Assembly (NCBI GenBank): GCA_963762565.1
Contig: CAVXLD010000009.1
Location: 64,001 to 128,000, forward strand
DNA length: 64,000 bases
DNA from: an uncultured Verrucomicrobiae bacterium
GTDB taxonomy: Bacteria > Verrucomicrobiota > Verrucomicrobiia > Chthoniobacterales > JAFAMB01
Reading direction: 5' to 3'
The notes under the pieces were generated by a model, which saw only the letters and a program-made list of their open reading frames with translations, was not told where the DNA came from and made no database searches. Shown one piece after another: positions 42,583-64,000 of the stretch. Position 1 is the first letter of the stretch. Each line of letters begins with the position of its first letter. The translations under genes and the position numbers were made by a program.

Positions 42583-43845
42583 GTGACGGCTACCGGACAG
42601 AACTCAGATCGGATGAACGGGGCGACGGCGAGCGCAAGTTGGCTATTGTCCCAAGAAGTTCGTGAGCCGGGTGATGGCGGGAGCTATTGGCCCAGCCGCA
42701 GCGATCTTTCGCTCGAGGAAAAGTGCGACCTCTACTACGGAAACGCAGGGATATTACTGTTCCTGCGCGAACTCTATGAAGCGACTGGTCGTCCAGAATA
42801 TCGGGAGGCGATTCGGCGCGGCGTACGGTTCCTGGAAAGGAATATCTCGCGCGTGGGTCGCTACGGTCTCTACGACGGGTTGGCTGGGATAGCGTTTTCC
42901 TTGGCCCAATGGCCGGATGACCCAGAGGCGGTAGCCGGCTGTTCGCGGGCGGTCGACCGTTTGCTTCGAGAAAAGCAAGACCACGTGAACGCGGGCGTGC
43001 GATGGAACCAACACATCGATGTGATGAGCGGTTCAGCGGGAATCGGGCTGAGTCTGCTTGAGCTTGGACGAAAATTGCATCGGCCAGAGCTAACCAATTT
43101 AGCGGTTCGGGCCGAAGTCGATCTGACGGCTGTCAGCTCAAATTTGCCCCGGCGGCGCTATTGGGTTCAGCAATCCAACGAGCAAAAGCAATACCCGAAT
43201 TTTTCTCATGGCACCGCTGGAGTCGGTTATTTTCTACTAAAGCTCTACGAAGAAACCGGTCACTGCAGGTTTCTTGACGCAGCCAATGACGCCGCGAACT
43301 GTCTCCAATCGATCATGTCCACCGACCCGGGGACCGAATGCCTTATTCCCCATGACTTACCCGAAGGAAGAGAGCTTTTCTATCTTGGGTGGTGCCATGG
43401 GCCGGCCGGCACCAATCGTTTTTTTTATGAGCTTTTTAGCATTACCAAAGAAGTTAAATGGCAAAGCGTTGGCCAAACCGCGGCGGAGACTATCCTGCGC
43501 TCCGGGATACCGGAACAACAGACACCCGGCCATTGGAATAACGTCAGTCGTTGTTGTGGAGTTGTCAGCGTTGGCGAGTTTTTTCTGGGACTTTATCGGA
43601 AAACCAAAAAGGTATCTTATCGCCAATTCGCGTTCCGGCTCGGCAAACACCTGGAAAACACAGCTCAAGCCGACGGCCAAGGTCTGAAATGGATCCAGGC
43701 TGAAAACCGGATTGAGCCAGACCGGCTGATAGCTCAGACCGGCCTGATGCAAGGTGGCGCTGGTATCGGATTGTTCCTCCTCCACTTGGCGGACCCAGAT
43801 AACAAACACGGAAGAGGGTTGCTCTTTCCGGATTCTCCCTGGTGA
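42583..43845 (+). CDS. stand-alone LanC-like (lanthionine synthetase C-like) protein
   Basis: GxAG repeats, FSHGTAG, GWCHGPAG, RCCG and GLMQGGAG. Confidence 0.88.
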   Translation: MTATGQNSDRMNGATASASWLLSQEVREPGDGGSYWPSRSDLSLEEKCDLYYGNAGILLFLRELYEATGRPEYREAIRRGVRFLERNISRVGRYGLYDGLAGIAFSLAQWPDDPEAVAGCSRAVDRLLREKQDHVNAGVRWNQHIDVMSGSAGIGLSLLELGRKLHRPELTNLAVRAEVDLTAVSSNLPRRRYWVQQSNEQKQYPNFSHGTAGVGYFLLKLYEETGHCRFLDAANDAANCLQSIMSTDPGTECLIPHDLPEGRELFYLGWCHGPAGTNRFFYELFSITKEVKWQSVGQTAAETILRSGIPEQQTPGHWNNVSRCCGVVSVGEFFLGLYRKTKKVSYRQFAFRLGKHLENTAQADGQGLKWIQAENRIEPDRLIAQTGLMQGGAGIGLFLLHLADPDNKHGRGLLFPDSPW

Positions 43846-48656: not shown

Positions 48657-50690
48657 ATGAAGCTACTCCACAACCCGTGTCTTCTTCAACGAAGCAAATT
48701 TTGCTGGGCGTCGCCACGAGCCCTAGCGGGCATCTCTTTACTTTTTTTGCAGCCTGCGTTTGGACAACAACCAACACCACAGACAAAGCCCGTTATTCCA
48801 CAAGCCGAACAGCCGACAGCAACTCCAAGTGCGGAGCCAATGCTGCCGACCGGGCCGAGAGAAGAAGCCAAGCCCTTGATCCCTGCGGCCGGTATTCCTA
48901 CTCCCAGTCCTACACCGACTCTCCCTACCGAGGTCCAATCCAAGCTGGATCAAGAGTTTGAGGAAGCAATGCAAGTGCATCGATTTCGCCCGAGCTTTTT
49001 TGCGCCGCTTTCGTTGCTCGATGCAGTACGTCTGACTCTCATGCAAAATTCGGACCTTCGCATGAGTACTGAAGACGCGCAGTCGGCCCGGGGTGCGCTG
49101 AAGAAAGCGACCGGAAATTACGATGCCCAATTCATCGGTGCTCTCGGTTATGTGAGGAGTCAGCTGTCCAGCTCGAACAGTAGTAACGCAGTCTCAGCTT
49201 TCTCAACGCAGAACCAAATTACTCAGGTCCTCACCCAGACGCTGACCCAAACCCTGACCCAGCTCAAAGCCAATCCGAGCGCCAACATCAGCCAGCTCGT
49301 GAGCATGAACGCCGCCCAATCCAGCGGGTCGGCATCAACGACTGACATACAAACCATTATCGCTACCGCAGACGCTTCCAAGACTTTGCGAAACGGGATA
49401 GACCTCAGCGTTGAGTACTCCCCCCAGTTCTTAAACAACCAGGATCAACTTTCGTGGCCTCCCGCGGTTCACCAAATCACTTTTTCAATGGGAATGTCTC
49501 TCACCAAATTTGGCACGTACTTCAATTCGGCTGACGAGACGGCTGCGCGTAAAGACTATCAAGCCGCCTTGTTGACTTTAGGGCACACCACCACCAAGGC
49601 AGTGCTCGACACGATACAGGCCTACTGGAAAGAGGCGGCAGCTCTCGAGAAGTTTTATTACGAGGACCGCACCTATCGGGTAAACGCCGCGGTACTTACC
49701 CTCACCGAGGAGCTGGCCAAGAATGGTGGCGTGGCTCAAACAGAGGTTCCGCTGGCTGTGGCTCACCGAGCGGAGGCCTTTGCGTCGCGATCGGCTGCGC
49801 TAATTGAGGTCTTGAATTCAGCGAAAGCCCTGGCGGCAACCTTAGGGTTAACTCGAGAGCAGTTGCGCTTCCTCCCGTTTCCGTCGGACCATTTCCCGGG
49901 CCTGAACGAAACCGCTCTCTCAAGAATCAATGAGTCTCAATTGATCGATGTGGCGCTGGGGCGACGTCTCGATCGGTTGGCCGCCATCGAGAAAGTCGAC
50001 GGAAAACGAGTGAAGTCCGACCATGCTAGAATCGATTTGCGGCCCGATGTTAAATTCAGTCTCGGGGGAGGCGCCGACATCGTTGACGGCCGGCAGACCG
50101 GAGCCGGTTCAGGCTATACCGTGGACCCGCAGGTTAATGCTAATGTCTCACTGAACTGGACGCCCGCCAACAATAAGAAAGAAGCCGCTTTGCTCGACGC
50201 GGAAGCAGATTTGGACAAGTCCCTTATCGGCCTGGACGATATTTCCAGAGAGATCGAGTTAAGCATTCAAAACGACATCTCCACAATGCAGGCTTACCAG
50301 GTCGAGATTGCCCAGTCAGATTTGGCCGTCGAAAACTACAAAAAAAGTATAACGGATCTGCGGGAGAAGTTCCGCGTGGGAGCCGCGACCCTCATCGACG
50401 TGTTTCAGTCCGTGGATCGACTCACCAGATCAGCAGAGTTGCTGGCGGATGCACAGTCGAGCATGGCGTCGACCATCGCTAAGCTTCGGTATGACACGGC
50501 GACAATGCTGACCAGAGGCACGGTTATGCGAACCCCGGGGTTTCCAAACCCGGTGGAGAAAATGCAGCTGAAAAGAGATGTTTTTGTTACTCTGCCGGAT
50601 TTGAACCAAGAGGCAGGTCCGACCGTAAAGGACCGGAATTATGAGCCTAATATCAAATACATCTCAGGCCACCCCCCCTGGCACCACTAA
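48657..50690 (+). CDS. TolC-family outer membrane efflux protein
   Basis: Signal and Pro-rich N-terminus, LSLLDAVRLTLMQN, REKFRVGAATLIDV; first gene of the export operon. Confidence 0.82.
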   Translation: MKLLHNPCLLQRSKFCWASPRALAGISLLFLQPAFGQQPTPQTKPVIPQAEQPTATPSAEPMLPTGPREEAKPLIPAAGIPTPSPTPTLPTEVQSKLDQEFEEAMQVHRFRPSFFAPLSLLDAVRLTLMQNSDLRMSTEDAQSARGALKKATGNYDAQFIGALGYVRSQLSSSNSSNAVSAFSTQNQITQVLTQTLTQTLTQLKANPSANISQLVSMNAAQSSGSASTTDIQTIIATADASKTLRNGIDLSVEYSPQFLNNQDQLSWPPAVHQITFSMGMSLTKFGTYFNSADETAARKDYQAALLTLGHTTTKAVLDTIQAYWKEAAALEKFYYEDRTYRVNAAVLTLTEELAKNGGVAQTEVPLAVAHRAEAFASRSAALIEVLNSAKALAATLGLTREQLRFLPFPSDHFPGLNETALSRINESQLIDVALGRRLDRLAAIEKVDGKRVKSDHARIDLRPDVKFSLGGGADIVDGRQTGAGSGYTVDPQVNANVSLNWTPANNKKEAALLDAEADLDKSLIGLDDISREIELSIQNDISTMQAYQVEIAQSDLAVENYKKSITDLREKFRVGAATLIDVFQSVDRLTRSAELLADAQSSMASTIAKLRYDTATMLTRGTVMRTPGFPNPVEKMQLKRDVFVTLPDLNQEAGPTVKDRNYEPNIKYISGHPPWHH

Positions 50691-51957
50691 AGACGGGGCG
50701 CCGCCGGAAAAAACTATCTTCCGAAAAGCCGCCTTGGAGCGGCTTTCTTCTCCGGAACAGCTCGATTATCTGATGTCGGTCACGTCGCCCGTCGGATGGC
50801 TGGCGCTTTCGGCATTGGCGGGCGTCCTTTTCCTGATTGTGCTTTGGGGGTTTCTTGGACGAATTCCCGATACGGTTTCAGGAAGCGGGATCTTGATTCG
50901 CGGCGGCGCGGTTTACGATGTTTCTGCCGGAAGCGATGGATTCATTACTCAGGTGCTGGTGAAAACGGGCGATCAAGTTAAGGCCGGCCAAGTCGTGGCA
51001 AAGATGAGCCAGTCGCAGTTGGAGCTAAAGATCAAGTCAAGCCAGGCCCAGCTAAAGGTCTTGCAGGGGCAGGACGCCGACATGACCAGTCGGGAGGATA
51101 AGAATGACGCCGCCGCGCTGGCGGACTACAAGAAACAAGATCAGGCATTGCTCGATGCCATTGCCAGCTACAAAGTTCAGATCGAAGCCGACCAGAGAGA
51201 ATTCGAAACTAAAGAAAGCCTACTGCAAAAAGGCTTAACCACGCAGGCTGAAGTCAACAAGGCGCGCGATGCCCTTTACGGCGTTAAGGGTCAGGTCGCG
51301 GATACTCAAGTCAAGGAGAGCCAGATTGGGACGGACGAAATCAAGTTAGCCCGCGACACTCAGACGTCTAGAAACGCGCGCCTGAAAGAGATCAACAGCA
51401 CGAAGCTGCAGCTCCAGGAATATATCGCGGAGCGAGATGCCGGAGTTCAAGTGGTTTGCAATTATTCGGGACGAGTGATCGAAAAGCTGGTTGAACGCGG
51501 CTCACCGGTTGTCGCAAAAGACCGGGTCATCACCGTCGAAGCGGAGGACGCGCCGATGCTGGCGGTAATCTATGTCCCCGCCGGAGAAGGGAAGAAAGTT
51601 CTGCCAAACCAGGAAATTCGGGTTTCACCTTCTACAGTGAAGGCTGAAGAGTATGGATTTATTCTCGGGAAAGTGACAAATGTTTCCTATTTCCCAAGCA
51701 CTCCGGAGGGCATGAAAGTTGTACTCAGAAACGAAGAGTTAGTGAAGGACCTTTCTACGACGGGAGCTCCTATTGAGATCACGGGCGACCTCTATCAAGA
51801 TCGGTCGACTAAGAGCGGGTACCGATGGTCTTCTTCGCAGGGACCATCAACGGGGATTTTCAGCGGCACGCTGGCCCAAGCTTCCATTGTGGTTGACCAG
51901 AAGCCGCCCATCGACTTCGTGATTCCGAAAATCAAAGAAATCCTCGGGCTCAAATGA
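50641..51957 (+). CDS. NHLM bacteriocin system secretion protein (HlyD family)
   Basis: IFRKAALERLSSPEQLD, PSTVKAEEYG and SGYRWSSSQGP. Confidence 0.92.
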   Translation: MSLISNTSQATPPGTTKDGAPPEKTIFRKAALERLSSPEQLDYLMSVTSPVGWLALSALAGVLFLIVLWGFLGRIPDTVSGSGILIRGGAVYDVSAGSDGFITQVLVKTGDQVKAGQVVAKMSQSQLELKIKSSQAQLKVLQGQDADMTSREDKNDAAALADYKKQDQALLDAIASYKVQIEADQREFETKESLLQKGLTTQAEVNKARDALYGVKGQVADTQVKESQIGTDEIKLARDTQTSRNARLKEINSTKLQLQEYIAERDAGVQVVCNYSGRVIEKLVERGSPVVAKDRVITVEAEDAPMLAVIYVPAGEGKKVLPNQEIRVSPSTVKAEEYGFILGKVTNVSYFPSTPEGMKVVLRNEELVKDLSTTGAPIEITGDLYQDRSTKSGYRWSSSQGPSTGIFSGTLAQASIVVDQKPPIDFVIPKIKEILGLK

Positions 51958-54137
51958 GCGACGCCATCCTGCCGTCCGACGGGGCGCTCCCCGCTCGCGT
52001 GATGACGCCGACGCTGCTGCAGATGGAGGCCGTGGAATGCGGGGCGGCGGCGTTGGGCATCATCATGCGGTATTACGATCTGTGGCGCCCGCTGGAGCAG
52101 CTCCGAATGGAATGCGGTGTGACCCGCGACGGCAGCAAAGCGAGTAATTTGTTGAAGGCGGCGCGACGTTTCGGGATGGAGGCGAACGGAATCCGTTGCG
52201 AGCTGAACGCCCTGCTAAAAACCGAACCACCGGTGATTCTCTATTGGAATTTCAATCACTTCCTGGTGTACGAGGGCGTTAGCCAAGGAAAAGTTCATTT
52301 GAACGACCCGGCTACCGGTCCTCGTCGAATTAGCATCGAAGAGCTAGAGGCCTCTTTCACCGGGGTAGTGCTGAAGATCAGCCGCGGTCCGGCCTTCGTA
52401 CCGGGCGGGGAAAAACCTAGCCTGTTAACTGCCTTGCGCCGGCGCATTTCGGGGTTCGAAATCGGTTTGAGTTTTGCGTTTTTAACCGGCTTGCTACTGA
52501 TCATTCCGAATATCGTGAACCCATCATTCACCCGGGTGTTCATCGACCAGTACCTGATCGGAGACAAGACGAGCATTCTCCGCCCATTGGTCGCCTGCAT
52601 GGCGGTCTCAATTGGCTTCATGATTTTGCTGCTTTGGTTGCAGCGCCATTTTCTATTGCGGTTGGAGACTAAGCTCGCCCTCACAACTTCCGCTAAGTTC
52701 TTTACCCATGTGGTCAAGCTGCCCATGGAATTCTATTCGCAGCGCTATGCGGGAGAAATCGGATCACGGGTGCTCATCAACGATAAGGTTGCCAAGGTTC
52801 TCTCCGATAAGCTGGTCACGACCGGGCTCGACCTGATGGCCTTGTTGTTCTTTGCCCTCGTCATGATCCAATATGATTTTTGGCTGACGTTGATCTGCGT
52901 CACCTTTGCCTTCCTCAATTTGATTGCGATCAAGGCCGTTCAACGGCCCCGGACCGATGCAAGCTTCCGGCTGCAGCAAGAACGCGGAAAGATGACCGGG
53001 ACTTCGATGAATGGCGTGCAAATGATTGAGACGCTGAAAGCGACCGGCGGTGAAGACGAGTTTTTTGGGCGGTGGTCAGGTTATCAGGCAAAGACTATCC
53101 GAGCGGAACAGGACATGGATTTATACGGTCAAACCTTGTCTGCCGTGCCTCCGCTGACCAAAGGGTTAATCACGGCCACGATCCTCGGGTTTGGTGGCTG
53201 GAGAGTCATGGATGGTCATTTAACCGTGGGTTTGTTAGTCGCCTTCCAATCATTGATGGATGGGTTCACTAAACCGATTACCTCCTTCGTGACATTCGGT
53301 AATGCGCTCCAGGAGACCGGCTCCGACTTGAACCGGCTCGACGACGTCTTGCGTTATGAAACCGATCCTATTTACGCCAGCGATCGCACGGTCAGCCCTG
53401 AGTTCAAGGCCACCATCAAATTGACCGGACTGCTCGAGGTCCGCAATCTGACCTTTGGGTTTAACCCATTAGGCGCCCCGTTAATTGAGAACCTCAGCTT
53501 CAGGGTCCGGCCGGGTGAGCGGGTCGCTTTGGTGGGCGGTAGCGGCAGCGGTAAATCGACCGTTTCCAAACTGGTAGCCGGCCTTTTCAAACCATGGAGC
53601 GGCGAGATCCTGTTCGACGGGGTTCCGCGAACGCAGATCCCTCGGCGTTTGCTGCACAATTCGATCGGTATGGTTGATCAGGATATCTTCATGTTCGAAG
53701 GCACGATTCGCGACAATCTGACCATGTGGAATCCGACAGTCCTCGACTCTCATATCACTCTAGCGTGTAAGGATTCTGCCATAGCGGAGGACGTAGCCAG
53801 CAGGCAAGGAGGTCTTTCCAGCACCGTTGCAGAAGGCGGGGTCAACTTTTCTGGTGGCCAGCGCCAAAGGCTCGAAATCGCTCGAGCCCTGGTGAATTCG
53901 CCAAGTTTTTTGATTCTGGACGAGGCCACTAGCGCGCTAGATCCAACCACTGAGGAAGTGATTGATCGCAACCTGCGTCGACGCGGCTGTTCCTGTTTAA
54001 TCGTAGCACACCGCCTAAGTACGATCCGTGACTGCGATGAGATCATCGTCCTCGAATATGGAAGAGTGGTAGAACGAGGGACGCACGAATCGATGAAAAA
54101 CGCAGGTGGCCCATATTCGAGGTTAATCAGTCATTAG
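51954..54137 (+). CDS. NHLM ABC transporter with C39 peptidase domain
   Basis: QMEAVECGAAAL, WNFNHF and NDPA (Cys/His/Asp triad); GGSGSGKS, FSGGQRQR and LDEATS. Confidence 0.95.
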   Translation: MSDAILPSDGALPARVMTPTLLQMEAVECGAAALGIIMRYYDLWRPLEQLRMECGVTRDGSKASNLLKAARRFGMEANGIRCELNALLKTEPPVILYWNFNHFLVYEGVSQGKVHLNDPATGPRRISIEELEASFTGVVLKISRGPAFVPGGEKPSLLTALRRRISGFEIGLSFAFLTGLLLIIPNIVNPSFTRVFIDQYLIGDKTSILRPLVACMAVSIGFMILLLWLQRHFLLRLETKLALTTSAKFFTHVVKLPMEFYSQRYAGEIGSRVLINDKVAKVLSDKLVTTGLDLMALLFFALVMIQYDFWLTLICVTFAFLNLIAIKAVQRPRTDASFRLQQERGKMTGTSMNGVQMIETLKATGGEDEFFGRWSGYQAKTIRAEQDMDLYGQTLSAVPPLTKGLITATILGFGGWRVMDGHLTVGLLVAFQSLMDGFTKPITSFVTFGNALQETGSDLNRLDDVLRYETDPIYASDRTVSPEFKATIKLTGLLEVRNLTFGFNPLGAPLIENLSFRVRPGERVALVGGSGSGKSTVSKLVAGLFKPWSGEILFDGVPRTQIPRRLLHNSIGMVDQDIFMFEGTIRDNLTMWNPTVLDSHITLACKDSAIAEDVASRQGGLSSTVAEGGVNFSGGQRQRLEIARALVNSPSFLILDEATSALDPTTEEVIDRNLRRRGCSCLIVAHRLSTIRDCDEIIVLEYGRVVERGTHESMKNAGGPYSRLISH

Positions 54138-54343: not shown

Positions 54344-57292
54344 ATGGCAGTCGTTGCCTCAGCTATCAGCAATGCACTCGTAGCAGCGGGACAGCTACAC
54401 CTTCTTCGTTTGAACGAAACCTTCGTGATCGAAGGGTCGGAGAACGTTTGGTTTATTGAGAGCGGCAAAGTGGACCTTTTCACGGTCCAGCTTCAGGGAA
54501 ACGATGCGACCGGACCGAGAACTCATTTCCTTTCCTTGGAAGCCGGGTCGCTGATCTTTGGGATGGATTTTGAAAGGCAGGAGCACGGATACTGCTTTCT
54601 TCTGACCGGTCAGGAAGGGACCCATCTAATCGAACTTGATCGGGAGAAAGTGAGGCGATTGGCTCGGGACCATGAATTTGCTGCGAGCATCGGCCAACTT
54701 ACCGATCAGTGGCTGGCTCATCTCTCCGCTAGCGTCACGCGAGATGTACGGCCACTTCCGAAAGCCGATGAGCTCTTGGTCGGAGGCAAGGAAATCTTGC
54801 TGCCGCGGGAGAAAATCGCGCGGGCCCGACGTGGCATCGTTTGGGTCCAGGTAATGCGAGGAGAAGCGTTGTATCTCGGAATGGAGGCCGTTTCCCGAAC
54901 GGGCGAAGGCGTGCCGGTCTTGCCTTTGTCGCCGGATACTTGGATCGAATCCTACGACGACAATCTCCTCTCCTGCTTTTCAACACCCACCGCGATCACT
55001 CAGGCCACATTTTGGATGGGCTTGGGTCTCTTCCATGAGGTGTTGTGCCAGTGTGAATTCATTAATAAGAAGCTCAGGATTGTCGATGATTTTAACCGGC
55101 TTCGCGCGCGGGAAGCATCGGGCTTGCGGTCGCGGGACACCGCCTTGCGCGAAATTGCTTCAGTATTGGAACCCCTCGCAGAAGGCCGTGACGGAGCTCT
55201 CCTCGATGCCTCGGCTAACCCGATACTGGCGGCTTGCCGGATAGTTGGTGAAGCCTGCGGAATCCCGGTTAAAGTCCCGCCTGACCTTCATCTGGTCGCC
55301 GACAAACTCGGAGCCATCGCTAAAGCATCGCGATTTCGCTACCGCGCGGTAGCGCTCCGAGGCGATTGGTGGGAGGTCGACCATGGCTCGCTTTTGGCCT
55401 ATCGCGAAGGAACTCGTGACCCGGTTGCGATCGTTAAGACCGGCCCCAAGAGCTACGAACTCGCAGACCCACGAACGCCGAACCGGATCCCAATAACTCC
55501 GGCGGTAGCAGCCACATTGGCACCCTTCGGTGTTTCATTTTATGCCCCCTTACCAGAGACCAAGTTAGGCGCTTGGGACCTGATTAAATTTGGATTGAGA
55601 GATTCTAAATCAGACCTTCGCACCATCCTTCTGATGGGGGTTTTGGTCGGATTATTAGGCATGGTAACGCCTTACTTCAGCGGTCAGATCTTCGATTCGA
55701 TTATCCCGTCCGCTGATCGCAGCCAGTTAACCCAGTTTGCGATCGGGTTATTTGCGGCAGCCCTGGCCACATTCGCTTTCGAGCTGACTCGTTCGATCGC
55801 CGTGCTCCGGCTCACCGGTAAGATGGACTACTCAGTTCAAGCCGGAGTCTGGGATCGCCTCCTGAACTTGCCGTCCACCTTCTTTCGAGAGTACACGGCC
55901 GGCGACCTCACCGACCGCGCGCTGGGCGTCGAACAGATTCGACAAGCGATCTCTCAATCCGGTACGCAGGCGATCGTCGGGGCAATCAGCGCTGTGATTA
56001 CGGGGATCTTTCTTTTCTCCTACAACCTCCAGATGGCGGCCATCGCTATCGCTCTGGTGGCGGTAGGAGTCCTGCTCCCCTGCTCTATCAATTTTCTGCA
56101 GTTACGCAATCAGCAACGCATGTTCAGAATGCGCGGGTTGATCACGGGCCTCGTTCTCCAGCTGATCAGCGGCGTCGCAAAGATCCGAGTTTCCGGAGCA
56201 GAAGACTCCGCATTCCGTGAATGGACTCGCAGATTTTCGGCTCAGAAGCGACTCGCCTTTCGGGTCGGATTCCTCGCCAACATTATCCAGGTCTTCAGCC
56301 GAGTATTTCCCGTCATTGCGACGGCGATCATTTTCTTCGCCTACGGCTGGCTACGAGACCAAGCCGCTGCGAACCATGATAAGTTCGGCATGACGACGGG
56401 CCAGTTCGTTGCCTTCAACGGCGTCTTCATGAATGTCCTCTCAAGCATGTTGGCGCTGAGCGGGGTTGTTCTCGATCTGCTGATCATCTTTCCGTTGTTT
56501 CAACGGCTACGGCCGATCATCCAAAGTGAACCTGAGATCGATGAAGCTAAAGCTCATCCTGGAGAATTGAGCGGTGAAGTGGAGGTTTATCATCTCTCAT
56601 TTCGCTACACCGAGGATGGGCCATTGATTCTGAAGGATGTCTCTCTCTTAATCCGACCAGGGGAATTCGTTGCGCTAGTAGGCGGCTCCGGATCTGGAAA
56701 ATCCACCCTGCTCCGTCTGCTCCTTGGCTTTGAGAAACCGGAGTCCGGAGCGATTCTTTACGATAGCCAGGAGCTCTCTTCTTTGGACCTGCGGGCGGTC
56801 CGGCGGCAAATCGGAGTCGTCCTGCAATCAAGCAAGCTGATGCCAACAGACATCTATCGGAACATCATCGGGTCGCATACAACTCTTACACTAAACGACG
56901 CTTGGGAGGCCGCCAGAATGGCTGGCCTCGATCGAGATATCAAAAATATGCCCATGGGCATGAACACCGTCGTATCCGAAGGTGGCGGCACGTTTTCGGG
57001 CGGTCAGCGGCAACGTCTTATGGTGGCGCGAGCGCTGGTGAATCGGCCTAGAATTGTTTTTTTTGACGAGGCAACCAGCGCGATGGATAACGAAACGCAA
57101 CGTACGGTCACTGAAAGCCTGGACGCCATGCAAGCAACTCGGATCGTTATCGCCCATCGATTGAGCACCATTATTAATGCGGACCGAATTTTCGTCCTGA
57201 AATATGGCGAGCTGGTTCAGACCGGTGCCTACACGGAATTGATGAATCAACCGGGGCCATTTGCCGATCTTGCCAAACGACAGCTGGCTTAA
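54344..57292 (+). CDS. NHLM ABC transporter permease/ATPase subunit
   Basis: cNMP-binding-like N-terminus, degenerate C39 (GDWWEVDHGSLL), WDRLLNLP, GGSGSGKS and FDEATS. Confidence 0.92.
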   Translation: MAVVASAISNALVAAGQLHLLRLNETFVIEGSENVWFIESGKVDLFTVQLQGNDATGPRTHFLSLEAGSLIFGMDFERQEHGYCFLLTGQEGTHLIELDREKVRRLARDHEFAASIGQLTDQWLAHLSASVTRDVRPLPKADELLVGGKEILLPREKIARARRGIVWVQVMRGEALYLGMEAVSRTGEGVPVLPLSPDTWIESYDDNLLSCFSTPTAITQATFWMGLGLFHEVLCQCEFINKKLRIVDDFNRLRAREASGLRSRDTALREIASVLEPLAEGRDGALLDASANPILAACRIVGEACGIPVKVPPDLHLVADKLGAIAKASRFRYRAVALRGDWWEVDHGSLLAYREGTRDPVAIVKTGPKSYELADPRTPNRIPITPAVAATLAPFGVSFYAPLPETKLGAWDLIKFGLRDSKSDLRTILLMGVLVGLLGMVTPYFSGQIFDSIIPSADRSQLTQFAIGLFAAALATFAFELTRSIAVLRLTGKMDYSVQAGVWDRLLNLPSTFFREYTAGDLTDRALGVEQIRQAISQSGTQAIVGAISAVITGIFLFSYNLQMAAIAIALVAVGVLLPCSINFLQLRNQQRMFRMRGLITGLVLQLISGVAKIRVSGAEDSAFREWTRRFSAQKRLAFRVGFLANIIQVFSRVFPVIATAIIFFAYGWLRDQAAANHDKFGMTTGQFVAFNGVFMNVLSSMLALSGVVLDLLIIFPLFQRLRPIIQSEPEIDEAKAHPGELSGEVEVYHLSFRYTEDGPLILKDVSLLIRPGEFVALVGGSGSGKSTLLRLLLGFEKPESGAILYDSQELSSLDLRAVRRQIGVVLQSSKLMPTDIYRNIIGSHTTLTLNDAWEAARMAGLDRDIKNMPMGMNTVVSEGGGTFSGGQRQRLMVARALVNRPRIVFFDEATSAMDNETQRTVTESLDAMQATRIVIAHRLSTIINADRIFVLKYGELVQTGAYTELMNQPGPFADLAKRQLA

Positions 57293-57348
57293 AGTAGCGA
57301 AACTGGTAGCCAGCCATACCTCTACGGACCTAACGCGCGGCTCACCCT

Positions 57349-58497
57349 ATGAAGAGCGATAGCACGGCCAATGTAGTTCCGTTTCCAAACGCTACGGTCG
57401 ATCAGAAAATTGACGCCAACATGACGGAAATCGCCCTAGACATTCGGGCGAAGGCGCTGGAGAAATGGGGAGCAAATCAAGCCGTCGAAGTCGTGGGTTT
57501 CAGCCAGAAAATTAGGGACACGCTCGATAAGGTTCAGAAGTTCGCCAAGTTCAATCAAACGATCCTGATCACCGGTGAAAGCGGCGTTGGGAAGGAACTC
57601 TTTGCTAAAGCTTGCTATCTGCTCAGCGCTCGAATCAAGGCGCCTTTTGTCATCGTCAACTGCCCGCAATACAGCGAAGGTAATGTAACCGTCAGTGAGC
57701 TTTTTGGTCATGTGAAGGGCAGCTTCACCGGCGCGATTGCCGATCATAAGGGCCTGTTCGATGCTGCCGAAGGCGGCGCCGTTTTTCTCGATGAAGTCGG
57801 AGACCTTCCTCTCAATGCACAGACCATGCTGCTGCGAGCGCTCGCTGAAAAAGAAGTAAAGCCTTTGGGGTCGAACAAAACCTATTCCGTCGATGTCAGG
57901 ATCATTGCCGCTACCAATCGCCCACTACGGGATATGGCGGCGTGCGGTCAGTTCCGGCAAGACCTCTACTTTCGTCTCCGCTATTTTCCACTTGAAATCC
58001 CGGCGCTGCGCGATCGAGAGGAGGACTGGAAGGTCTTGATCAGTCATTTTGTCGATCGGCTAAACCAGGAATATAACCTGAAGAAAGCGTTCTCCCCTAT
58101 CTCCATCAAGTTCTTGGAGCGTTACCCCTGGCCGGGCAACGTCAGGGAGCTGAAAAGCATCGTCACCATTGGGTTCTCCATGGCCGACTCGAAGTACATC
58201 GAACCAGACCACTTTGTTAGCGACCTGCGACAGGCGAATTTGCCCGGTCCCGACACCGGTAAGAGCGAGTTATTCGAACATATGGTTGAGGACGGCGGAT
58301 CGTTTTGGGATGTCGTTCATCAGCCTTTTCTCAACCGAGATCTTAATCGAGCGCAGGCACGAGAGATTATTTCGCAGGGGCTATTGACCGCTAGAGGCAG
58401 CTACCGGCGGATGAGCGTTCTCTTCAATATTAAGCCGGATCAATATCAAAAATTCATGGACTTCCTCCGCCATCATCGGTTGAAGCCGGAGGAATAG
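57349..58497 (+). CDS. sigma54 enhancer-binding protein lacking a sensory domain
   Basis: GESGVGKE, GSFTGA, FLDEVG and WPGNVREL; only ~45 aa precede the AAA+ domain; atypical C-terminal HTH. Confidence 0.9.
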   Translation: MKSDSTANVVPFPNATVDQKIDANMTEIALDIRAKALEKWGANQAVEVVGFSQKIRDTLDKVQKFAKFNQTILITGESGVGKELFAKACYLLSARIKAPFVIVNCPQYSEGNVTVSELFGHVKGSFTGAIADHKGLFDAAEGGAVFLDEVGDLPLNAQTMLLRALAEKEVKPLGSNKTYSVDVRIIAATNRPLRDMAACGQFRQDLYFRLRYFPLEIPALRDREEDWKVLISHFVDRLNQEYNLKKAFSPISIKFLERYPWPGNVRELKSIVTIGFSMADSKYIEPDHFVSDLRQANLPGPDTGKSELFEHMVEDGGSFWDVVHQPFLNRDLNRAQAREIISQGLLTARGSYRRMSVLFNIKPDQYQKFMDFLRHHRLKPEE

Positions 58498-58695
58498 GCG
58501 TTTGGCGTTTGGCGTTCGGCGTTCGGCGTTCGGCGGGTTCGGGCGGGTGGCCCGGGAGGGATCCGCGTCCCCGCGATCCGTGGTTATCGAAGCCGAGGAC
58601 ATGCTGTAATCGCGGAACAAGAATATACCTCTAGGTGACGGCACGTCTTTCGCGGCGCGCAGGACGCGCGCCCTCCCTAACCGCCAACCGCCAAA
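58497..58695. repeat. GGAGGG-REP element with TTYGGCG heptamer arm
   Basis: Inverted near-identical copy of 12715-12874. Confidence 0.8.
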
Positions 58696-58700
58696 CGCGC

Positions 58701-58749
58701 AAAATGGAGCCCCCGTTCCATTTTCGAGAATCGACGTTCCATTTTCGAG
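58701..58749. promoter_or_regulatory. candidate upstream activator sequences
   Basis: CGTTCCATTTTCGAG at 58714 and 58735 (21-bp period) plus an inverted half-site AAAATGGA at 58701. Confidence 0.6.
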
Positions 58750-58829
58750 CCGGTTGCACACCGGCACAAAAACAGAGCATTTGACATAAATATCTTATAA
58801 TGAAAGACTTAAACCTCTATCCCCGATTG

Positions 58830-58846
58830 TGGCACGGCTGCTGCTT
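58830..58846 (+). promoter_or_regulatory. sigma54 (-24/-12) promoter of the precursor operon
   Basis: TGGCACGGCTGCTGCTT, a close match to TGGCACG-N4-TTGCW. Confidence 0.75.
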
Positions 58847-58900
58847 AATGGATTTGCAGACATGCCGGTGGCTGTCGAACTCCAGTAGAGGAGATTTGTA

Positions 58901-59215
58901 ATGGACCCCAACTCAACCGTCTCGCGTAAAGATATAAGGGAAGCCCTAGTGCGGGCGGCTTTGAAAGACGAGGCGTTTCGGGAGTCTCTTTTGGCGAACC
59001 CAAAGTTCGCAGTTGAGAGAGCGTTGGGTAGAACCTTACCGGATCGCCTACAAGTCGTTCTTTTACGAGAGACAGACAACCTCATGTATATCGTGTTGCC
59101 GAAGGATTTTCCTGATGACGCAGCACATCTCACGGATGCGGAACTCGAAAACGTGGCCGGAGGCTTCCTTAGCGCAGACAACAATATGCTGTCTCCTCAG
59201 GATCCGGCGTTCTGA
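58901..59215 (+). CDS. NHLP (nitrile hydratase-like) leader peptide family protein
   Basis: RAALKDEAFRESLLANPK, YIVLP and LTDAELENVAGG followed by the 16-aa core FLSADNNMLSPQDPAF. Confidence 0.9.
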   Translation: MDPNSTVSRKDIREALVRAALKDEAFRESLLANPKFAVERALGRTLPDRLQVVLLRETDNLMYIVLPKDFPDDAAHLTDAELENVAGGFLSADNNMLSPQDPAF

Positions 59216-59269
59216 GAATTCCAGTCCGATTAACACCAACGCAAACCAGAAAAATAAAAAACCACTACC

Positions 59270-59392
59270 ATGAGCGAAGAAATCCAGAAACCCGAGACGG
59301 TCAGCGACGAACAACTTGAAGATGTTGCCGGCGGTACGTTCGACAATAACTCCTGCAACGCCCTGATCGAGGCCACCGTTATCGTTGGGTAA
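59270..59392 (+). CDS. lanthipeptide precursor copy 1 (40 aa)
   Basis: MSEEIQKPETVSDEQLEDVAGG-TFDNNSCNALIEATVIVG*; double-Gly leader. Confidence 0.9.
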   Translation: MSEEIQKPETVSDEQLEDVAGGTFDNNSCNALIEATVIVG

Positions 59393-59471
59393 GACATTCG
59401 TCTTCCTTCCGATACCGGTTCAGATCAACTGCACACCCAACCCAACCCAAACCCACCAACTAGACCACCAT

Positions 59472-59594
59472 ATGAGCGAAGAGATCCAGAAGCCTGAGAC
59501 TGTTAGCGACGAGCAACTCGAAGATGTTGCCGGCGGCACGTTCGACAATAACTCCTGCAACGCCCTGATCGAAGCCACCGTCATCGTTGGGTAA
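59472..59594 (+). CDS. lanthipeptide precursor copy 2 (40 aa)
   Basis: Same peptide as copy 1, with 10 synonymous differences. Confidence 0.9.
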   Translation: MSEEIQKPETVSDEQLEDVAGGTFDNNSCNALIEATVIVG

Positions 59595-59674
59595 GACATT
59601 CGTCTTCCTTCCGATACCGGTTCAGATCAACTGCACACCCAACCCAACCCAAAAACCACCAACTAGACCACCAT

Positions 59675-59797
59675 ATGAGCGAAGAGATCCAGAAGCCTGA
59701 GACTGTTAGCGACGAGCAACTCGAAGATGTTGCCGGCGGTACGTTCGACAATAACTCCTGCAACGCCCTGATCGAAGCCACCGTCATCGTTGGGTAA
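59675..59797 (+). CDS. lanthipeptide precursor copy 3 (40 aa)
   Basis: Same peptide; one synonymous difference from copy 2. Confidence 0.9.
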   Translation: MSEEIQKPETVSDEQLEDVAGGTFDNNSCNALIEATVIVG

Positions 59798-59874
59798 GAC
59801 ATTCGTCTTCCTTCCGATACCGGTTTAGATCAGCTGCACTGCCAACCCAACCAACCCACCAACCAAATCATAAT

Positions 59875-59997
59875 ATGAGCGAAGAGATCCAGAAGCCTGA
59901 AAACGTTAGCGATGAGCAACTCGAAGATGTTGCTGGCGGCACGTTCGATAACAACTCGTGCAACGCCCTGATTGAGGCCACTGTCATCGTTGGATAA
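59875..59997 (+). CDS. lanthipeptide precursor copy 4 (40 aa)
   Basis: Same core; a single T10N change in the leader and many synonymous differences. Confidence 0.9.
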   Translation: MSEEIQKPENVSDEQLEDVAGGTFDNNSCNALIEATVIVG

Positions 59998-60021
59998 CAC
60001 GATAGGCCAGAATTAAGTAAT

Positions 60022-60058
60022 GCCGCCGCCGGATTTCTTCGGCGGCGGCTTTATATTT
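60022..60058 (+). terminator. intrinsic terminator / stabilising hairpin after the precursor array
   Basis: gccgccgccgga-tttc-ttcggcggcggc followed by tttatattt. Confidence 0.75.
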
Positions 60059-60064
60059 GCTGCT

Positions 60065-63000
60065 ATGACGAGGGGATCGATCGCCTCGATATTGGCGCGC
60101 AGCGCTCCATTGCAAGAACGTCTGGCTGCTACCGATCCTCAGCAGAATCCCGGAGAGACACCCGCCCTTTTGGAGTGTTGGCGAGGCGCCTTGGATACCG
60201 CAACTCACCGGCTGTTCGATGAGCGGCTTGCGTCGCTCGGCCTTTCCTTGGAACAGGCTCGACTTCAGCTTGGGATGCTTGGGCGCGAACCAAATCGAGA
60301 AAGTAAATGCTTTGATGCATTCTTGAAGGCTTTCTCCTACCCGCCTTACCCCGGCTTTGTTGCTCTCAAACTCCCGTTTGTACCCCTCTGGGCGCCCGCA
60401 GCGTCCTTCGCGCATGACCTGGTCTTCCGAGGCGCAGAGGATAGCCGGCTCATTTCTGAGGATGCTTCTCGAAATTTGTCGCAATCGTTACTGGAGGAGC
60501 TCTGTCGCGTCGCCGCCGAGCCCGTTTATCTCTTGTTTCAAGAAGAGCGTGCCAAGGGGCAGTCGTTTGAGGAATTTGTCAGGCTATCCTTGAAATCGGA
60601 CGGAGAACGGATCTTTGGTCGCTTCCCGGCCCTTGCTCGTTGCCTCCTTGTTGTATTCAGGAACTGGATTAGTGGCACTCAGCTCTTTATGAGGCGGCTT
60701 GCGGCCGATTGGGCAGAGTTCCATGCGTTCCTTCCTGAACTGAAAAGCGATGATCCGATCCAGTCGATTTCGACAGGTTTTTCGGACCGGCACGACGACG
60801 GTCTTCAAGTCTTGCTTGTCGAGTTTTCGGACGGCTCCCGGGTGCTTTATAAACCCAAGGACATGTCGTTGGAGGCGCGGCTGCCCCAAATCAACGAATG
60901 GCTAGACGCGGAAGGTTTCCCGTTCAAACTGAGATTTCCGGTTTCGCTGCAAAAGGAAGGCTACGGATGGTCCGCATTCATCCGGCCGGAGCCCTGTCAC
61001 TCAATCGAAGAGGTAAAAACGTTTTTCGAACACGCCGGGGCTCTCCTCTGCCTCGCCCACACATTGAACGGCAAGGACCTTCTTCTAGAAAACATCGTCG
61101 CCTGTGGCAGCAATCCGGTTCCGATCGATCTCGAAACTTTCTTTCAGCCGCAAGCCCAAAGAGCGGATCGGATCGGTTCGCCTCCCGATCGAGATCCGCC
61201 AGAATGCCTGCGCCGCAGTTCCGTTCTCGAAACCGGAATGCTCCCGTATTGGCACATCGCCGGACTGGATATTCCCTGCGATCTCAGCGGCTTAAGCGGT
61301 TCCAAGGAAAATCTGTCCCAGATCAGGCAGCCCTACTGGGACGCCGTGAACACGGATCAGATGAAGCGTTCCGATCGCGGGTATAAGTCACCGGAGAAAG
61401 CTAACCGGCCCGTTTACCATGGTGCATTTCAACATCCGCGAGACTATGAGGGCGCGCTGGTCGATGGCTTCTGCCAGCTTTATCGGTTTCTGTGCGTCCG
61501 AAAGGAATCATTTATCAATTTCCTGCAAACGTTTTCGAACGCTCGAACGCGACTGATCTTCCGATCAACCCAAATGTACGGGTTGCTAGCGAAGCAATCG
61601 TTAAGAGCCGAAAACCTGACGGATGGAATTCTGCGGAGCTTGGTATTTGAAACCCTCTATCGGCCGGCGCTTAAGGGTAATTATCTATCCAACTTTCTCA
61701 AGGCGATCCTGGATCGGGAGGTACGCTGTTTGGAAAACCTCGATATCCCGAGGTTCTATATTCGCCTCGATTCGGACGCGCTGACGATCGATCACGGGCT
61801 TGAGATCCCGCATTTCCTTGTGGAATCACCCTTGGAAACAGTCAGGCAGCGAGTACTGGCGATGTCCTCAGAAATCGAAGAATATCATGTGGAAAATCTC
61901 CAGGAATCGCTCAGAAGGCAGCCCAGAATGGTTGGCCCGAGTCAGACCCGTGGCGAGATCCTCGACCTCGCTGGCAACCTGGTTGCCGAGATTCTGCGTC
62001 GGAGCAGAAATGACCCTGCAAAAAATCTGTGGCCACTGCCAACCTTCGTGAAGGAGCCTCTTCCCGAGCATGAACGTGACGGGCTCTATTTGGGAGATAT
62101 CGGAGTCGCGATATTTCTGGCGGCTTGGGATTGCGCGGGAGGGACTTCCATTTCAAAAGAACCGCTCGATACGTTGTTCTTGCGGTTGCAAGGTCGTCGA
62201 TTCCCACAAAACATCCCTCTAGGCATTTGCAACGGGCTTGGTTCATACGCCTATGGTTGTCTAGTCCTGGCAAAGCTCACCAAGCAGACCCGGTGGCTCG
62301 AGCTTTCCGACCGGTTTGGGGAAGAGATTTCCGTCGGACGTCTGACATCAGAAGCGGACCCCGATATCGTCTACGGTTTGGCGGGAGCAATTGTTTGCCT
62401 GGTTCGGCTACACCAAGCGACGAAAGACCAGAGTTTCCTGGAACGGGCACAGCAAGGTTTGGACATCCTTAGCTCCAGATTTATACACGGAACAGGGTGG
62501 GTCCGACCGAACGGAGAAGCTTTGGTCGGTTTCGCCCATGGCTCTGCAGGGATCGCTTTTGCTGCCCTGACGTTGGCCGAGGCGTCAAAAGAGGAGCGGT
62601 GTTTAGCACTGGCAAGAGATGCTTTTGCACTAGATCGTGGATTTTACTCGGAATCGGAAAAAAATTGGATGTCCACTACTCAATGCGAGGGAAATGCGTT
62701 GCGAGCTTGGTGCAGCGGTTCGCCTGGCATGACGCTAGCAAGACTAACAGCTCGGCGTCTCATGGAAGATCCGGTCTTAGGCGCCGAAATCGAACGGACG
62801 TGGCGGAGCTTTCCCGATCTGCTCGGCCTCGATCACTGGTGCTGCGGCAATTTAGGACTGGTAGAGCTTCTCTGGCATGCCGCCCGAAAACTCGACCGGG
62901 AAGACCTGCGCACGAAAGCCGACACTTTGCTTGGCAAAACTGTTCAGCGAGCGCTCAGGAGTGCGTTTTCTAGGTTCAATCCCGAGTTGGGCCACAACTT

Positions 63001-63106
63001 CTGTTTCCAACCCAGCCTGTTCCGCGGGTCCGCCGGTTTGGGTTATACGTTGCTGCGGTTTCTGCACCCCGATAAACTGCCTTGTATCCTCGCATTTGAG
63101 GTGTAG
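60065..63106 (+). CDS. lanM: class II lanthipeptide synthetase LanM
   Basis: SDRH, YKPKD, ENIVA..PVPIDLET, RLIFRSTQMY and DIPRF; cyclase GFAHG, WCSG and WCCG; likely start MTRGS (60065). Confidence 0.92.
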   Translation: MTRGSIASILARSAPLQERLAATDPQQNPGETPALLECWRGALDTATHRLFDERLASLGLSLEQARLQLGMLGREPNRESKCFDAFLKAFSYPPYPGFVALKLPFVPLWAPAASFAHDLVFRGAEDSRLISEDASRNLSQSLLEELCRVAAEPVYLLFQEERAKGQSFEEFVRLSLKSDGERIFGRFPALARCLLVVFRNWISGTQLFMRRLAADWAEFHAFLPELKSDDPIQSISTGFSDRHDDGLQVLLVEFSDGSRVLYKPKDMSLEARLPQINEWLDAEGFPFKLRFPVSLQKEGYGWSAFIRPEPCHSIEEVKTFFEHAGALLCLAHTLNGKDLLLENIVACGSNPVPIDLETFFQPQAQRADRIGSPPDRDPPECLRRSSVLETGMLPYWHIAGLDIPCDLSGLSGSKENLSQIRQPYWDAVNTDQMKRSDRGYKSPEKANRPVYHGAFQHPRDYEGALVDGFCQLYRFLCVRKESFINFLQTFSNARTRLIFRSTQMYGLLAKQSLRAENLTDGILRSLVFETLYRPALKGNYLSNFLKAILDREVRCLENLDIPRFYIRLDSDALTIDHGLEIPHFLVESPLETVRQRVLAMSSEIEEYHVENLQESLRRQPRMVGPSQTRGEILDLAGNLVAEILRRSRNDPAKNLWPLPTFVKEPLPEHERDGLYLGDIGVAIFLAAWDCAGGTSISKEPLDTLFLRLQGRRFPQNIPLGICNGLGSYAYGCLVLAKLTKQTRWLELSDRFGEEISVGRLTSEADPDIVYGLAGAIVCLVRLHQATKDQSFLERAQQGLDILSSRFIHGTGWVRPNGEALVGFAHGSAGIAFAALTLAEASKEERCLALARDAFALDRGFYSESEKNWMSTTQCEGNALRAWCSGSPGMTLARLTARRLMEDPVLGAEIERTWRSFPDLLGLDHWCCGNLGLVELLWHAARKLDREDLRTKADTLLGKTVQRALRSAFSRFNPELGHNFCFQPSLFRGSAGLGYTLLRFLHPDKLPCILAFEV

Positions 63107-63219
63107 GAATCAATCGTTTTTCGGGCTGCTGCTCGCGCTCGTCGTCGTCCTCGTCCTCCGAGCAGAACCCAGTTAGTTTACGGGGCTGATCTAATCGAGC
63201 GCTGTGGCGGAGCCCACGA

Positions 63220-63454
63220 CTGGAGGGAGCCGCTTTGTAGCATTGAAGCTCCATCGGTTGGCAGACAGGCGGCTCCCGAGAACGTCTCCACGTGCCGCAG
63301 TTCTATCGCCGTCGTGTCTCTCCGCCGTACCAAACCAAATGCGATGGGAAATTGCTGCCGCTGGGCAATTCCCGGGAGCCGCTTGTCTACCCCGAAAACT
63401 TTCGGTGGCTGCCAACTTGCATAACTGCCAAGCTACAAAGCGGCTCCCCTCCAG
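63220..63454. repeat. GGAGCCGC-family MITE/REPIN
   Basis: ctggagggagccgctttgtagc...gctacaaagcggctcccctccag. Confidence 0.75.
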
Positions 63455-63479
63455 GCCCTGGGCGCCAAACGAGCCCTCC

Positions 63480-64000
63480 ATGGAACTTATCTACACCCTA
63501 CACCCCACACCGACGCCCGAAGAGCGGTATCGCATCGTTGATCCGCTGATCGCTTACAACGAGGCACAGGCAGGGCCAAGAAACTCGAAGGAATTCGCTT
63601 TTTTTGTGCGTTCTGAAACAGGTGAGCTCGTCGGAGGGTTATTGGGCTCGACTCACTTCAACCATTTCTTTGTCTCAGCGATTTTCATCGACCAGGAGTT
63701 TCGACGCGAAGGGATTGGGCGTGAACTGATCAGACGCGCAGCAGCTTTGGCGCTTGAGCGAGGGTGCGATATAATCTACCTGGACACCTTCGATTTCCAG
63801 GCACCCGGTTTCTACGAGAAACTCGGGTTCAAAGTTTTCGGGGCGCTGAACGACTATCCGACGGGCCACCGACGTCTCTATTTCGTGAAACGACTTGGTG
63901 CAGGCGGCGAGGCCCAAGGACGCACTACAAAACTGAACTTCACCCTTCAACCCCAGCCAACGCCGGACGAAAAAAAGCGCATCATTGATCCCTTGGTCGC
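63480..64000 (+). CDS. tandem-domain GNAT acetyltransferase (partial, runs off the window)
   Basis: MELIYTLHPTPTPEERYRIVDPLIAYN...FRREGIG...LDTFDFQAPGFYEKLGF, then a second repeat starting PTPDEKKRIIDPLV; no stop, so absent from the ORF track. Confidence 0.85.
   Translation, partial: MELIYTLHPTPTPEERYRIVDPLIAYNEAQAGPRNSKEFAFFVRSETGELVGGLLGSTHFNHFFVSAIFIDQEFRREGIGRELIRRAAALALERGCDIIYLDTFDFQAPGFYEKLGFKVFGALNDYPTGHRRLYFVKRLGAGGEAQGRTTKLNFTLQPQPTPDEKKRIIDPLV

Follow-up and report, generated by a model that had tools for sequence, protein, structure and literature searches.

The window analyzed here is a 64,000-nucleotide stretch from an uncultured Verrucomicrobiae bacterium of the order Chthoniobacterales (contig CAVXLD010000009.1, positions 64,001 to 128,000, assembly GCA_963762565.1), and our subject is a tandem array of four short genes at 59270-59997 that precedes a gene for a LanM-type lanthipeptide synthetase. 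An earlier sequence-only reading had described four tandem genes for 40-residue precursor peptides, starting at 59270, 59472, 59675 and 59875, and both the open reading frames (ORFs) and their translation agree with it. Tandem Repeats Finder reports a single array over these coordinates, with a period of 203, 3.6 copies and 92% matches. Genomes, loci, proteins and contigs are designated by our own G, L, P and C numbers, G000 being the genome of the window.

59270-59392, plus strand: precursor copy 1, a 123-nucleotide ORF encoding 40 amino acids, a 22-residue leader followed by an 18-residue core
59472-59594, plus strand: precursor copy 2, an ORF translating to 40 amino acids
59675-59797, plus strand: precursor copy 3, a 40-residue ORF one nucleotide different from copy 2, a recent duplicate
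59875-59997, plus strand: precursor copy 4, a 40-residue ORF with leader Thr10 replaced by Asn

The translated 18-residue core, which holds a single cysteine, is the same in all four copies, as the earlier reading had it, and the sole amino-acid change among them is the Thr10 to Asn substitution in the leader of copy 4. The copies differ from one another at the following numbers of nucleotides.

Copy 1 versus copy 2: 10 synonymous, 0 non-synonymous
Copy 1 versus copy 3: 9 synonymous, 0 non-synonymous
Copy 1 versus copy 4: 17 synonymous, 2 non-synonymous
Copy 2 versus copy 3: 1 synonymous, 0 non-synonymous
Copy 2 versus copy 4: 10 synonymous, 2 non-synonymous
Copy 3 versus copy 4: 11 synonymous, 2 non-synonymous

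For copies 1 and 2, our recount gives exactly the numbers reported from the sequence alone. Using 25.7 synonymous and 94.3 non-synonymous sites per copy and a Jukes-Cantor correction of the synonymous divergence (dS), we obtained a dS of 0.47-1.60 and a non-synonymous divergence (dN) of 0-0.022 over all pairs except copies 2 and 3 (dS 0.55 and dN 0 for copies 1 and 2; dS 1.60 and dN 0.022 for copies 1 and 4). The binomial probability of the synonymous excess ranges from 9e-6 to 5e-10 over the pairs (2e-7 for copies 1 and 2, 5e-10 for copies 1 and 4). Because the differences are nearly all synonymous and dS is high, the copies are old, except for the 2/3 pair, and one peptide is maintained by selection and not by recent homogenization. 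The dS and dN values and the binomial excess thus bear out the proposed purifying selection, which is strong. Antisense ORFs over the array were ruled out because the substitutions sit at third positions of the plus-strand frame.

We searched 61 genomes, comprising the window's own and 60 relatives, and found the peptide in nine, all of which belong to the window's own family; the order's other families, represented by 24 genomes, gave 0 matches. In the genome collections, the matching genomes are exclusively metagenome-assembled genomes of Chthoniobacterales/Verrucomicrobiota. Tandem genes with the same leader occur in seven genomes (4, 4, 3, 3, 3, 2 and 1 copies), and in all seven the peptide genes lie between an activator gene and LanM, with the order HlyD, first ABC protein (ABC1), second ABC protein (ABC2), activator, NHLP (nitrile hydratase leader peptide) protein, peptides, LanM conserved as far as the contigs reach. 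The family is small: its profile retrieved 62 of 1.84 billion representative proteins at E <= 0.001, including 21 at E <= 1e-10. A metagenome scan returned 47 loci, and the peptide was recognized by its pattern in 43, of which 28 hold 2-5 near-identical copies; many of the single-copy loci lie at contig edges. Repetition of one core in tandem is characteristic of the family as a whole.

Nine metagenome loci (L040-L048) carry a core identical to that of the window, in 3-4 copies where the contig is long enough: in order, 3, 3, 1 (at the edge of its contig), 3 (of which one is broken), 3 (of which one runs off the contig), 3, 4, 3 and 3. L041 holds counterparts of window copies 1, 2 and 3, and L040 holds two 2/3-type copies and one copy-4-type copy. 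As these loci retain different subsets of the window's copy types, array membership turns over while the peptide stays fixed. Arrays of other lineages consist of several identical copies and one divergent member each. In L043, a broken middle copy, with its core truncated after Gly-Gly, is flanked by two intact copies, which shows array turnover through decay besides duplication.

Orphan single homologs were also encountered, at L029 (5328-5534, minus strand), L030 (4940-5113, plus strand) and L060, with Gly-Ser in place of Gly-Gly and Pro in place of a conserved Thr. Those at L029 and L030 adjoin an NtrC-type regulator and an aldolase gene, and the orphans may be decaying or repurposed copies. 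P0058, considered among the profile hits as a long-leader fusion of the core, looks like an over-extended ORF call and not an NHLP protein, and was set aside. P0036, P0042, P0047 and P0046 are distant profile matches with two leader-plus-core units within one ORF; they are a different family with acidic, Cys-free cores.

The array is embedded in a cluster of genes and control elements that runs in a single direction to the end of the window.

48657-50690, plus strand: TolC-like outer-membrane efflux protein (Pfam OEP, 2.1e-15; TIGR01844 weak and under its cut-off)
50641-51957, plus strand: HlyD-type adaptor for NHLP bacteriocin export (TIGR03794, 323.6 bits against a cut-off of 156)
51954-54137, plus strand: C39 peptidase/permease/ATPase exporter, the first ABC protein (TIGR03796, 1033.8 bits; Pfam Peptidase_C39, 5.9e-32)
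54344-57292, plus strand: second ABC permease/ATPase for NHLP export (TIGR03797, 900.4 bits)
57349-58497, plus strand: sigma-54 enhancer-binding protein without a receiver domain (Sigma54_activat, 1.2e-58, residues 49-215)
58714-58749, plus strand: two perfect 15-nucleotide direct repeats, 21 nucleotides apart, about 100 nucleotides upstream of the promoter
58830-58845, plus strand: sigma-54 type promoter TGGCAC-N5-CTGCT, 55 nucleotides before the start codon of the NHLP gene
58901-59215, plus strand: 104-residue precursor with an NHLP leader and a 16-residue Cys-free core (TIGR03793, 71.8 bits against a cut-off of 50.9)
60022-60049, plus strand: intrinsic terminator or attenuator, a hairpin with a 12-bp stem (10 GC pairs) followed by a T-run
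60065-63106, plus strand: LanM (TIGR03897, 591.5 bits)
63204-64000, plus strand: GNAT acetyltransferase that runs beyond the end of the window (Pfam Acetyltransf_1, 1.6e-15)

The precursor leader carries Val, Leu and Val at positions -4, -7 and -12 before the Gly-Gly cleavage site, where C39 domains require hydrophobic residues according to passages of PMC12537861, and the C39 domain of the first ABC protein is predicted to cut the leader after Gly-Gly. A double-glycine leader of C39 type and a LanM had both been proposed; the former now finds support in this rule and in the adjoining TIGR03796 exporter, and the latter in the TIGR03897 gene that flanks the array and starts 68 nucleotides past copy 4. 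Three things had escaped the sequence-only reading: the NHLP gene, presumably co-transcribed with the array, the sigma-54 control and the unusual character of the LanM. The 40-residue peptide has no match in Pfam, even at E = 10, and none to the TIGR03793 and Nif11 models; its leader is 22 residues long. The model NF038167 (CTB-family double-Gly bacteriocin) scores 23.9 bits, below its cut-off of 32, and matches the leader only. A protein-language-model atlas gave sub-threshold leads only (Type-A lantibiotic 0.87, ComC 0.85). Homologs P0001, P0004, P0009 and P0011 carry the precomputed label PF28158.

An NHLP homolog with a Cys-free core is present in all seven loci (in G003 it was recovered only as a 43-residue C-terminal ORF). 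Between congeners, NHLP identity is 83% overall and, by eye, about 85% in the leader and about 60% in the core, where roughly 10 of 16 positions are kept between G000 and G004 (also by eye); the cores of G007 and G024, which lie outside the genus, are unrelated in sequence. The leader of the short peptides resembles the NHLP tail, as both end L-E-x-V-A-G-G. About 40% of LanM-adjacent NHLP proteins lack Cys, according to passages of Haft et al. (PMC2887384). Since the NHLP cores are Cys-free in all seven loci, the short peptides are the only nearby substrates for the conserved cyclase. With an adjoining LanM in all seven array-bearing genomes, a Gly-Gly leader next to a C39 exporter, and a core that combines Cys with Ser/Thr, the four genes have the features of class II lanthipeptide structural genes, and we consider it likely that they are dosage-amplified LanA genes of such a system.

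The GNAT gene encodes a tandem double domain of 382 residues reaching G000:C9:128352 (full ORF: L038, 705-1853). A single-domain GNAT homolog follows LanM in G002, G003, G004 and G005, and none was found at the G007 or G024 loci. The window core contains no Lys, so that any acetylation of the peptide by the GNAT protein might be at the N-terminus.

LanM aligns over its full length with LicM2 (6ST5, 8e-50) and, through its dehydratase part, with CylM (5DZT). It keeps the YKPK Lys, the catalytic-loop Asp and Asn, the IDLE Asp, the elimination-loop Arg and Thr/Ser, and the cyclase His. Its zinc ligands are Cys-Cys-Cys, the third lying in a CCG motif, and WCCG occurs in all seven family LanMs and in all full-length close homologs; passages of PMC10783134 describe the CCG motif as a ProcM-like signature. 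Among the CylM-type dehydratase residues (Lys274, Asp347, His349, Asn352, Asp364), four are present and the His349 equivalent is not: the DxH His is Leu in the window enzyme (DLLLEN) and L, W, G or Q in 7/7 family enzymes. It is absent from 48 of 50 scorable homologs (out of 51 database homologs of the active-site region), the two keepers being the most distant hits, and the genome's other LanM, on contig C5, has a canonical DLHQEN loop. The CylM-H349A variant is severely slowed and makes little product, yet it reaches nearly full modification after 10 h (passages of PMC4550811), and by analogy we read the window LanM as altered or slow, not dead. A complex prediction with the LanM dehydratase domain (residues 1-640) and the 40-residue peptide gave a score of 0.02 and a mark of 0.32, and counts neither way.

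Amino-acid identities within the cluster depend on which genomes are compared.

Window versus three same-genus genomes: LanM 37%; HlyD, ABC1, ABC2, activator and NHLP protein 73-84%
G005 versus G002 (same core): LanM 82%; other cluster proteins 72-96%
G004 versus G005 (different cores): LanM 54%; other cluster proteins 76-87%

LanM is the fastest-diverging gene of the cluster. Because its identity is high between genomes with the same core and low between genomes with different cores, the divergence of the enzyme tracks the core, the reverse of the ProcM pattern.

The window core offers Thr1, Ser6 and Thr14 as possible partners for Cys7. From 53 distinct cores collected across the family, we used the 35 with a single Cys and at most 30 residues; the collection also held 14 Cys-free 'cores', mostly distant leader-only hits or fragments. 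The Cys is nearly invariant in the family alignment. A Ser/Thr lies at Cys+6 or Cys+7 in 33 of the 35 cores and at Cys-2 or further upstream in 30, and Asp occupies core position 3 in 31. The two cores without a downstream Ser/Thr are the G010 and G018 orphans, whose leaders end in Gly-Ser and in whose genomes no LanM was found, and the LanM-linked cores at L051, L056 and L065 have no Ser/Thr upstream of Cys. The sequence-only reading had left the choice between Thr1-Cys7 and Cys7-Thr14 rings. Since the Ser/Thr at Cys+6/+7 is conserved and some LanM-linked cores lack an upstream partner, the comparison favors the latter: if the peptide is modified, a Cys7-Thr14 ring with the Cys on its N-terminal side has a rather better than even chance, and a Thr1-Cys7 ring, now less favored, seems doubtful. 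Cinnamycin-type rings likewise have a Cys N-terminal to the dehydro residue, as in the predicted ring (Cys i to Thr i+6/7); cinnamycin itself has multiple rings, and its sequence and leader are unrelated to those of the window peptide. The window core contains two acidic but no basic residues, and family cores are nearly all neutral or anionic (by eye), a charge unusual for membrane-active cationic antibiotics, which does not decide the function.

The sigma-54 pattern has one match in the 64-kb window, where 0.06 are expected, and an equivalent site lies 419-450 nucleotides upstream of the array in all seven genomes; rpoN is encoded in the window's genome. The activator shares about 81-84% identity with the proteins of congeners. 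The 15-nucleotide repeats form a candidate activator-binding site: the motif occurs at the same offsets in 5/5 same-genus loci and a related palindrome in G024, and no upstream repeat was found at the G007 locus. In G004 (L023, 7798-8525), three additional copies form a block inserted upstream of the NHLP gene and equipped with a separate sigma-54 promoter and a separate hairpin, which brings the promoters and the terminators of this one locus to two each. A heptamer repeat, GGCGTT[C/T], begins at the stop codon of the window's activator gene (5.6 copies, 58497-58538) and is 94% complementary to a 17-nucleotide stretch 167 nucleotides downstream (58682-58698).

The terminator hairpin downstream of copy 4 has a folding energy of -30.2 kcal/mol (z = -4.83), with 0 of 200 shuffles equally stable, and a comparable hairpin with T-run follows the last peptide gene in six of the seven genomes. 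It falls within the longest LanM frame, from 60020. As this frame contains the terminator and the N-termini of relatives align from 60065, we set the LanM start at 60065, not 60020. The regions before the four short genes (59216-59269, 59393-59471, 59595-59674 and 59798-59874) are C/A-rich, with nearly no G in their last 35-40 nucleotides, and contain no Shine-Dalgarno sequence, whereas the NHLP start is preceded by GGAG; this difference suggests that translation of the array initiates in a different mode from that of the NHLP gene. Processing hairpins between the copies were dropped, since the inter-copy spacers have no significant structure (z of about -0.4), and internal sigma-54 promoters in the spacers were rejected because the GG...GC spacing is 12 nucleotides, not the 10 of sigma-54. 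An Rfam scan of 57300-60400 returned no family.

Part of 58800-60100 is present in 20 listed sequencing runs, of which six are soil metatranscriptomes from different studies. Contigs on 58835-60011 were found in 4/4 soil metatranscriptome runs examined, from four studies, and several are 99-100% identical over copy 3. There is little or no cover on 60058-60450, most of LanM and the activator gene, which is evidence of neither absence nor termination. A pile-up of contigs at 58482-58678, with loose ends on both sides, lies on a simple repeat and probably derives from other organisms.

We propose that the adjacent enhancer-binding protein would activate the sigma-54 promoter, giving a single transcript that holds the NHLP gene and the four copies, and that the terminator would pass only part of transcription to lanM and the GNAT gene, leaving precursor in excess over enzyme. 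LanM would then bind the short acidic leader, phosphorylate and eliminate Thr14, possibly also Thr1 and Ser6, and add Cys7 to dehydrobutyrine-14 at its CCG zinc site, yielding a single eight-residue methyllanthionine ring in which the Cys is the N-terminal partner. Cleavage after Gly-Gly would fall to the C39 domain of ABC1, and the resulting 18-residue peptide would leave the cell through the ABC pair together with the HlyD and outer-membrane proteins; its head would be polar and acidic and its tail hydrophobic, and it would contain one ring. As for its role, an antagonistic peptide is a reasonable conjecture that falls somewhat short of an even chance; a signal is a weaker candidate, a surface-active or structural function is unlikely, and some other role is more unlikely still.

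Could the array have arisen through mis-assembly or collapse, or consist of duplicates in decay that have no functional significance? The single nucleotide between copies 2 and 3 and the broken middle copy of L043 would fit, but copies 1, 2/3 and 4 are separated by 9-19 changes, nearly all synonymous, RNA-library contigs cover the array, and the same array appears in independent assemblies, its core standing in tandem in nine independent metagenome loci. The copy divergence and the independent metagenome assemblies already refute this view, which we regard as having next to no chance, in keeping with the earlier judgment that mis-assembly was unlikely. A weightier alternative takes the 40-residue peptides as plain double-glycine bacteriocins or pheromones that remain unmodified and are only exported by the C39/ABC protein, with LanM serving the NHLP protein or being vestigial. 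Several observations lend themselves to it and weigh against structural genes of a lanthipeptide: orphan homologs exist without a LanM, which was not found in the G010 and G018 genomes (87% and 79% complete) or on the L060 contig; the DxH His, listed in passages of PMC4550811 among residues conserved in LanMs, is lost across the LanM clade; and DprM needs the structured N-terminal bundle of the NHLP, tail-only leaders not being substrates (passages of PMC12537861). The sole family match of the peptide, below threshold, is moreover to the double-Gly bacteriocin leader model NF038167 (23.9 versus 32 bits). On the same side of the balance, we infer modification by LanM, the ring and leader cleavage alike from the genes; the core tails are Ser/Thr-rich and the set behind the Cys+6/+7 count was gathered with a profile containing this same region; and the RNA evidence consists of assembled contigs, with possible DNA carry-over and no transcript ends given. 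Against unmodified peptides stand the NHLP cores, Cys-free in 7/7 loci, together with the report in passages of PMC12537861 that DprM leaves a Cys-free precursor unmodified, so that the intact, conserved CCG cyclase would be left without a substrate. The Cys and the Ser/Thr at Cys+6/+7 are kept in 33/35 cores, the Ser/Thr being lost exactly in the LanM-less orphans, and LanM divergence follows the short-peptide core. We therefore hold unmodified peptides to be improbable.

The failure of tail-only leaders with DprM counts against LanM using the short peptides or, alternatively, hints at an NHLP protein acting in trans. In such a split-leader system, the NHLP protein would be no precursor but a separate leader domain, which binds LanM or the exporter in trans and activates it, and the short peptides, which carry the tail-like part of the leader alone, would be processed in bulk. 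Such an arrangement would account for the retention, at every locus, of a complete NHLP whose core is useless, for the stronger conservation of its leader part relative to that core, for substrates of only 40 residues and for the ability of one regulatory protein to serve a multi-copy substrate array; we consider it an outside possibility. It is also improbable, in our estimate, that the locus makes two peptides, the ring peptide and a linear 16-mer derived from the NHLP protein (in relatives, alternatively, a divergent array member), in a ratio set by gene numbers. In its favor, all seven loci have the NHLP gene next to the array and downstream of a shared promoter, members of the genus keep part of the NHLP core, and many relatives' arrays combine several identical copies with one variant. 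Against it, the window's own array has no variant copy, and beyond the genus (G007, G024) the NHLP cores show no sequence relationship. Dosage-amplified genes for one LanM-modified peptide remain our preferred account.

Passages of PMC6071512 describe ruminococcin A of Ruminococcus gnavus (rumA1A2A3 and RumM), which resembles the window system in being class II, with three genes for one prepeptide, a LanM and a C39-type transporter, but is a multi-ring antibiotic of a Firmicute, unrelated in sequence to the window peptide; those passages describe no NHLP partner, sigma-54 control or His-less CCG LanM. Nisin O of Blautia obeum combines identical nsoA1-3 with a variant nsoA4 (PMC6031655), as in the arrays of relatives, but is class I (LanB/LanC) with a nisin-like core, and the window array has no variant. 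The prochlorosin or ProcM-type systems, including the C5 locus of the window's own genome, share with it a CCG LanM (the motif is described in passages of PMC10783134), Gly-Gly leaders and NHLP-type ABC export. Their leaders, however, are long (Nif11/NHLP) and each enzyme has many diverse cores, whereas the window has a 22-residue leader and one core in four copies; in addition, the C5 LanM keeps the DxH His, which the window LanM does not, and the window-type enzyme diverges with its core. The DprM/DprE system of Desulfotomaculum comes close, with NHLP precursors and a LanM, cores with at most one Cys and one methyllanthionine ring, a Cys-free member left unmodified and C39 recognition through -4, -7 and -12 (passages of PMC12537861). 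In those passages, all DprM substrates carry a full NHLP, whereas in the window the Cys-bearing substrates have a tail-like leader and the full NHLP is on a separate Cys-free protein.

The C5 locus (G000, about 579.7-597.3 kb; L039 and L009) encodes about 18 precursors with 76-residue Nif11-type leaders and cores of about 40 residues, mostly with two Cys, followed by a LanM with CCG and DLHQEN, and is a second, classic prochlorosin-like locus. Its diverse cores provide, within one genome, the contrast to hypervariable ProcM-type cores that the sequence-only reading had drawn. That reading had also not recognized the core as a described lanthipeptide; within the literature searched (about 1.7 million PubMed Central articles and all subscription journals lay outside it), we found no printed record of the peptide and no lanthipeptides of this order.

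Multiple precursor genes per lanthipeptide, CCG LanMs, NHLP export sets and single-ring NHLP lanthipeptides are already known; what appears new is their combination, conserved in one soil Verrucomicrobiota lineage. On the peptide side, it joins short-leader, single-Cys cores in old multi-copy arrays to an obligatory Cys-free NHLP partner; the rest comprises sigma-54 control, a terminator before lanM, a His-less CCG LanM that tracks the core and a predicted ring from Cys to a downstream Thr. Most of what is known of lanthipeptide biology comes from Firmicutes, Actinobacteria and cyanobacteria, and to our knowledge almost no RiPPs (peptides that are ribosomally synthesized and then modified post-translationally) have been characterized from Verrucomicrobiota. 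The locus thus points to a coherent lanthipeptide-type family in soil members of this phylum, present in soil RNA libraries, in which a ProcM-like CCG enzyme is paired with the opposite strategy: one core is fixed across old gene copies and amplified, and between close relatives the enzyme changes along with the core. The locus also provides natural experiments on the purpose of the conserved DxH His in LanM dehydratases, on whether a LanM from NHLP-type systems accepts a leader reduced to its tail, be a separate NHLP protein present or not, and on rings from Cys to a downstream dehydro residue. Given the several gene copies and the presence in soil RNA libraries, the peptide may be an abundant extracellular molecule of widespread soil bacteria.

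Two further genes of the window lie upstream of the export genes. A stand-alone LanC-like protein of 420 residues is encoded at 42583-43845; its homologs occupy unrelated positions in no fewer than four same-genus genomes, and it is therefore probably not part of the lanthipeptide cluster. A carboxylic acid reductase gene at 44219-47743 on the minus strand (NF041592, 1656 bits) lies beside a gene for a STAS-domain protein and is divergent from the export genes.

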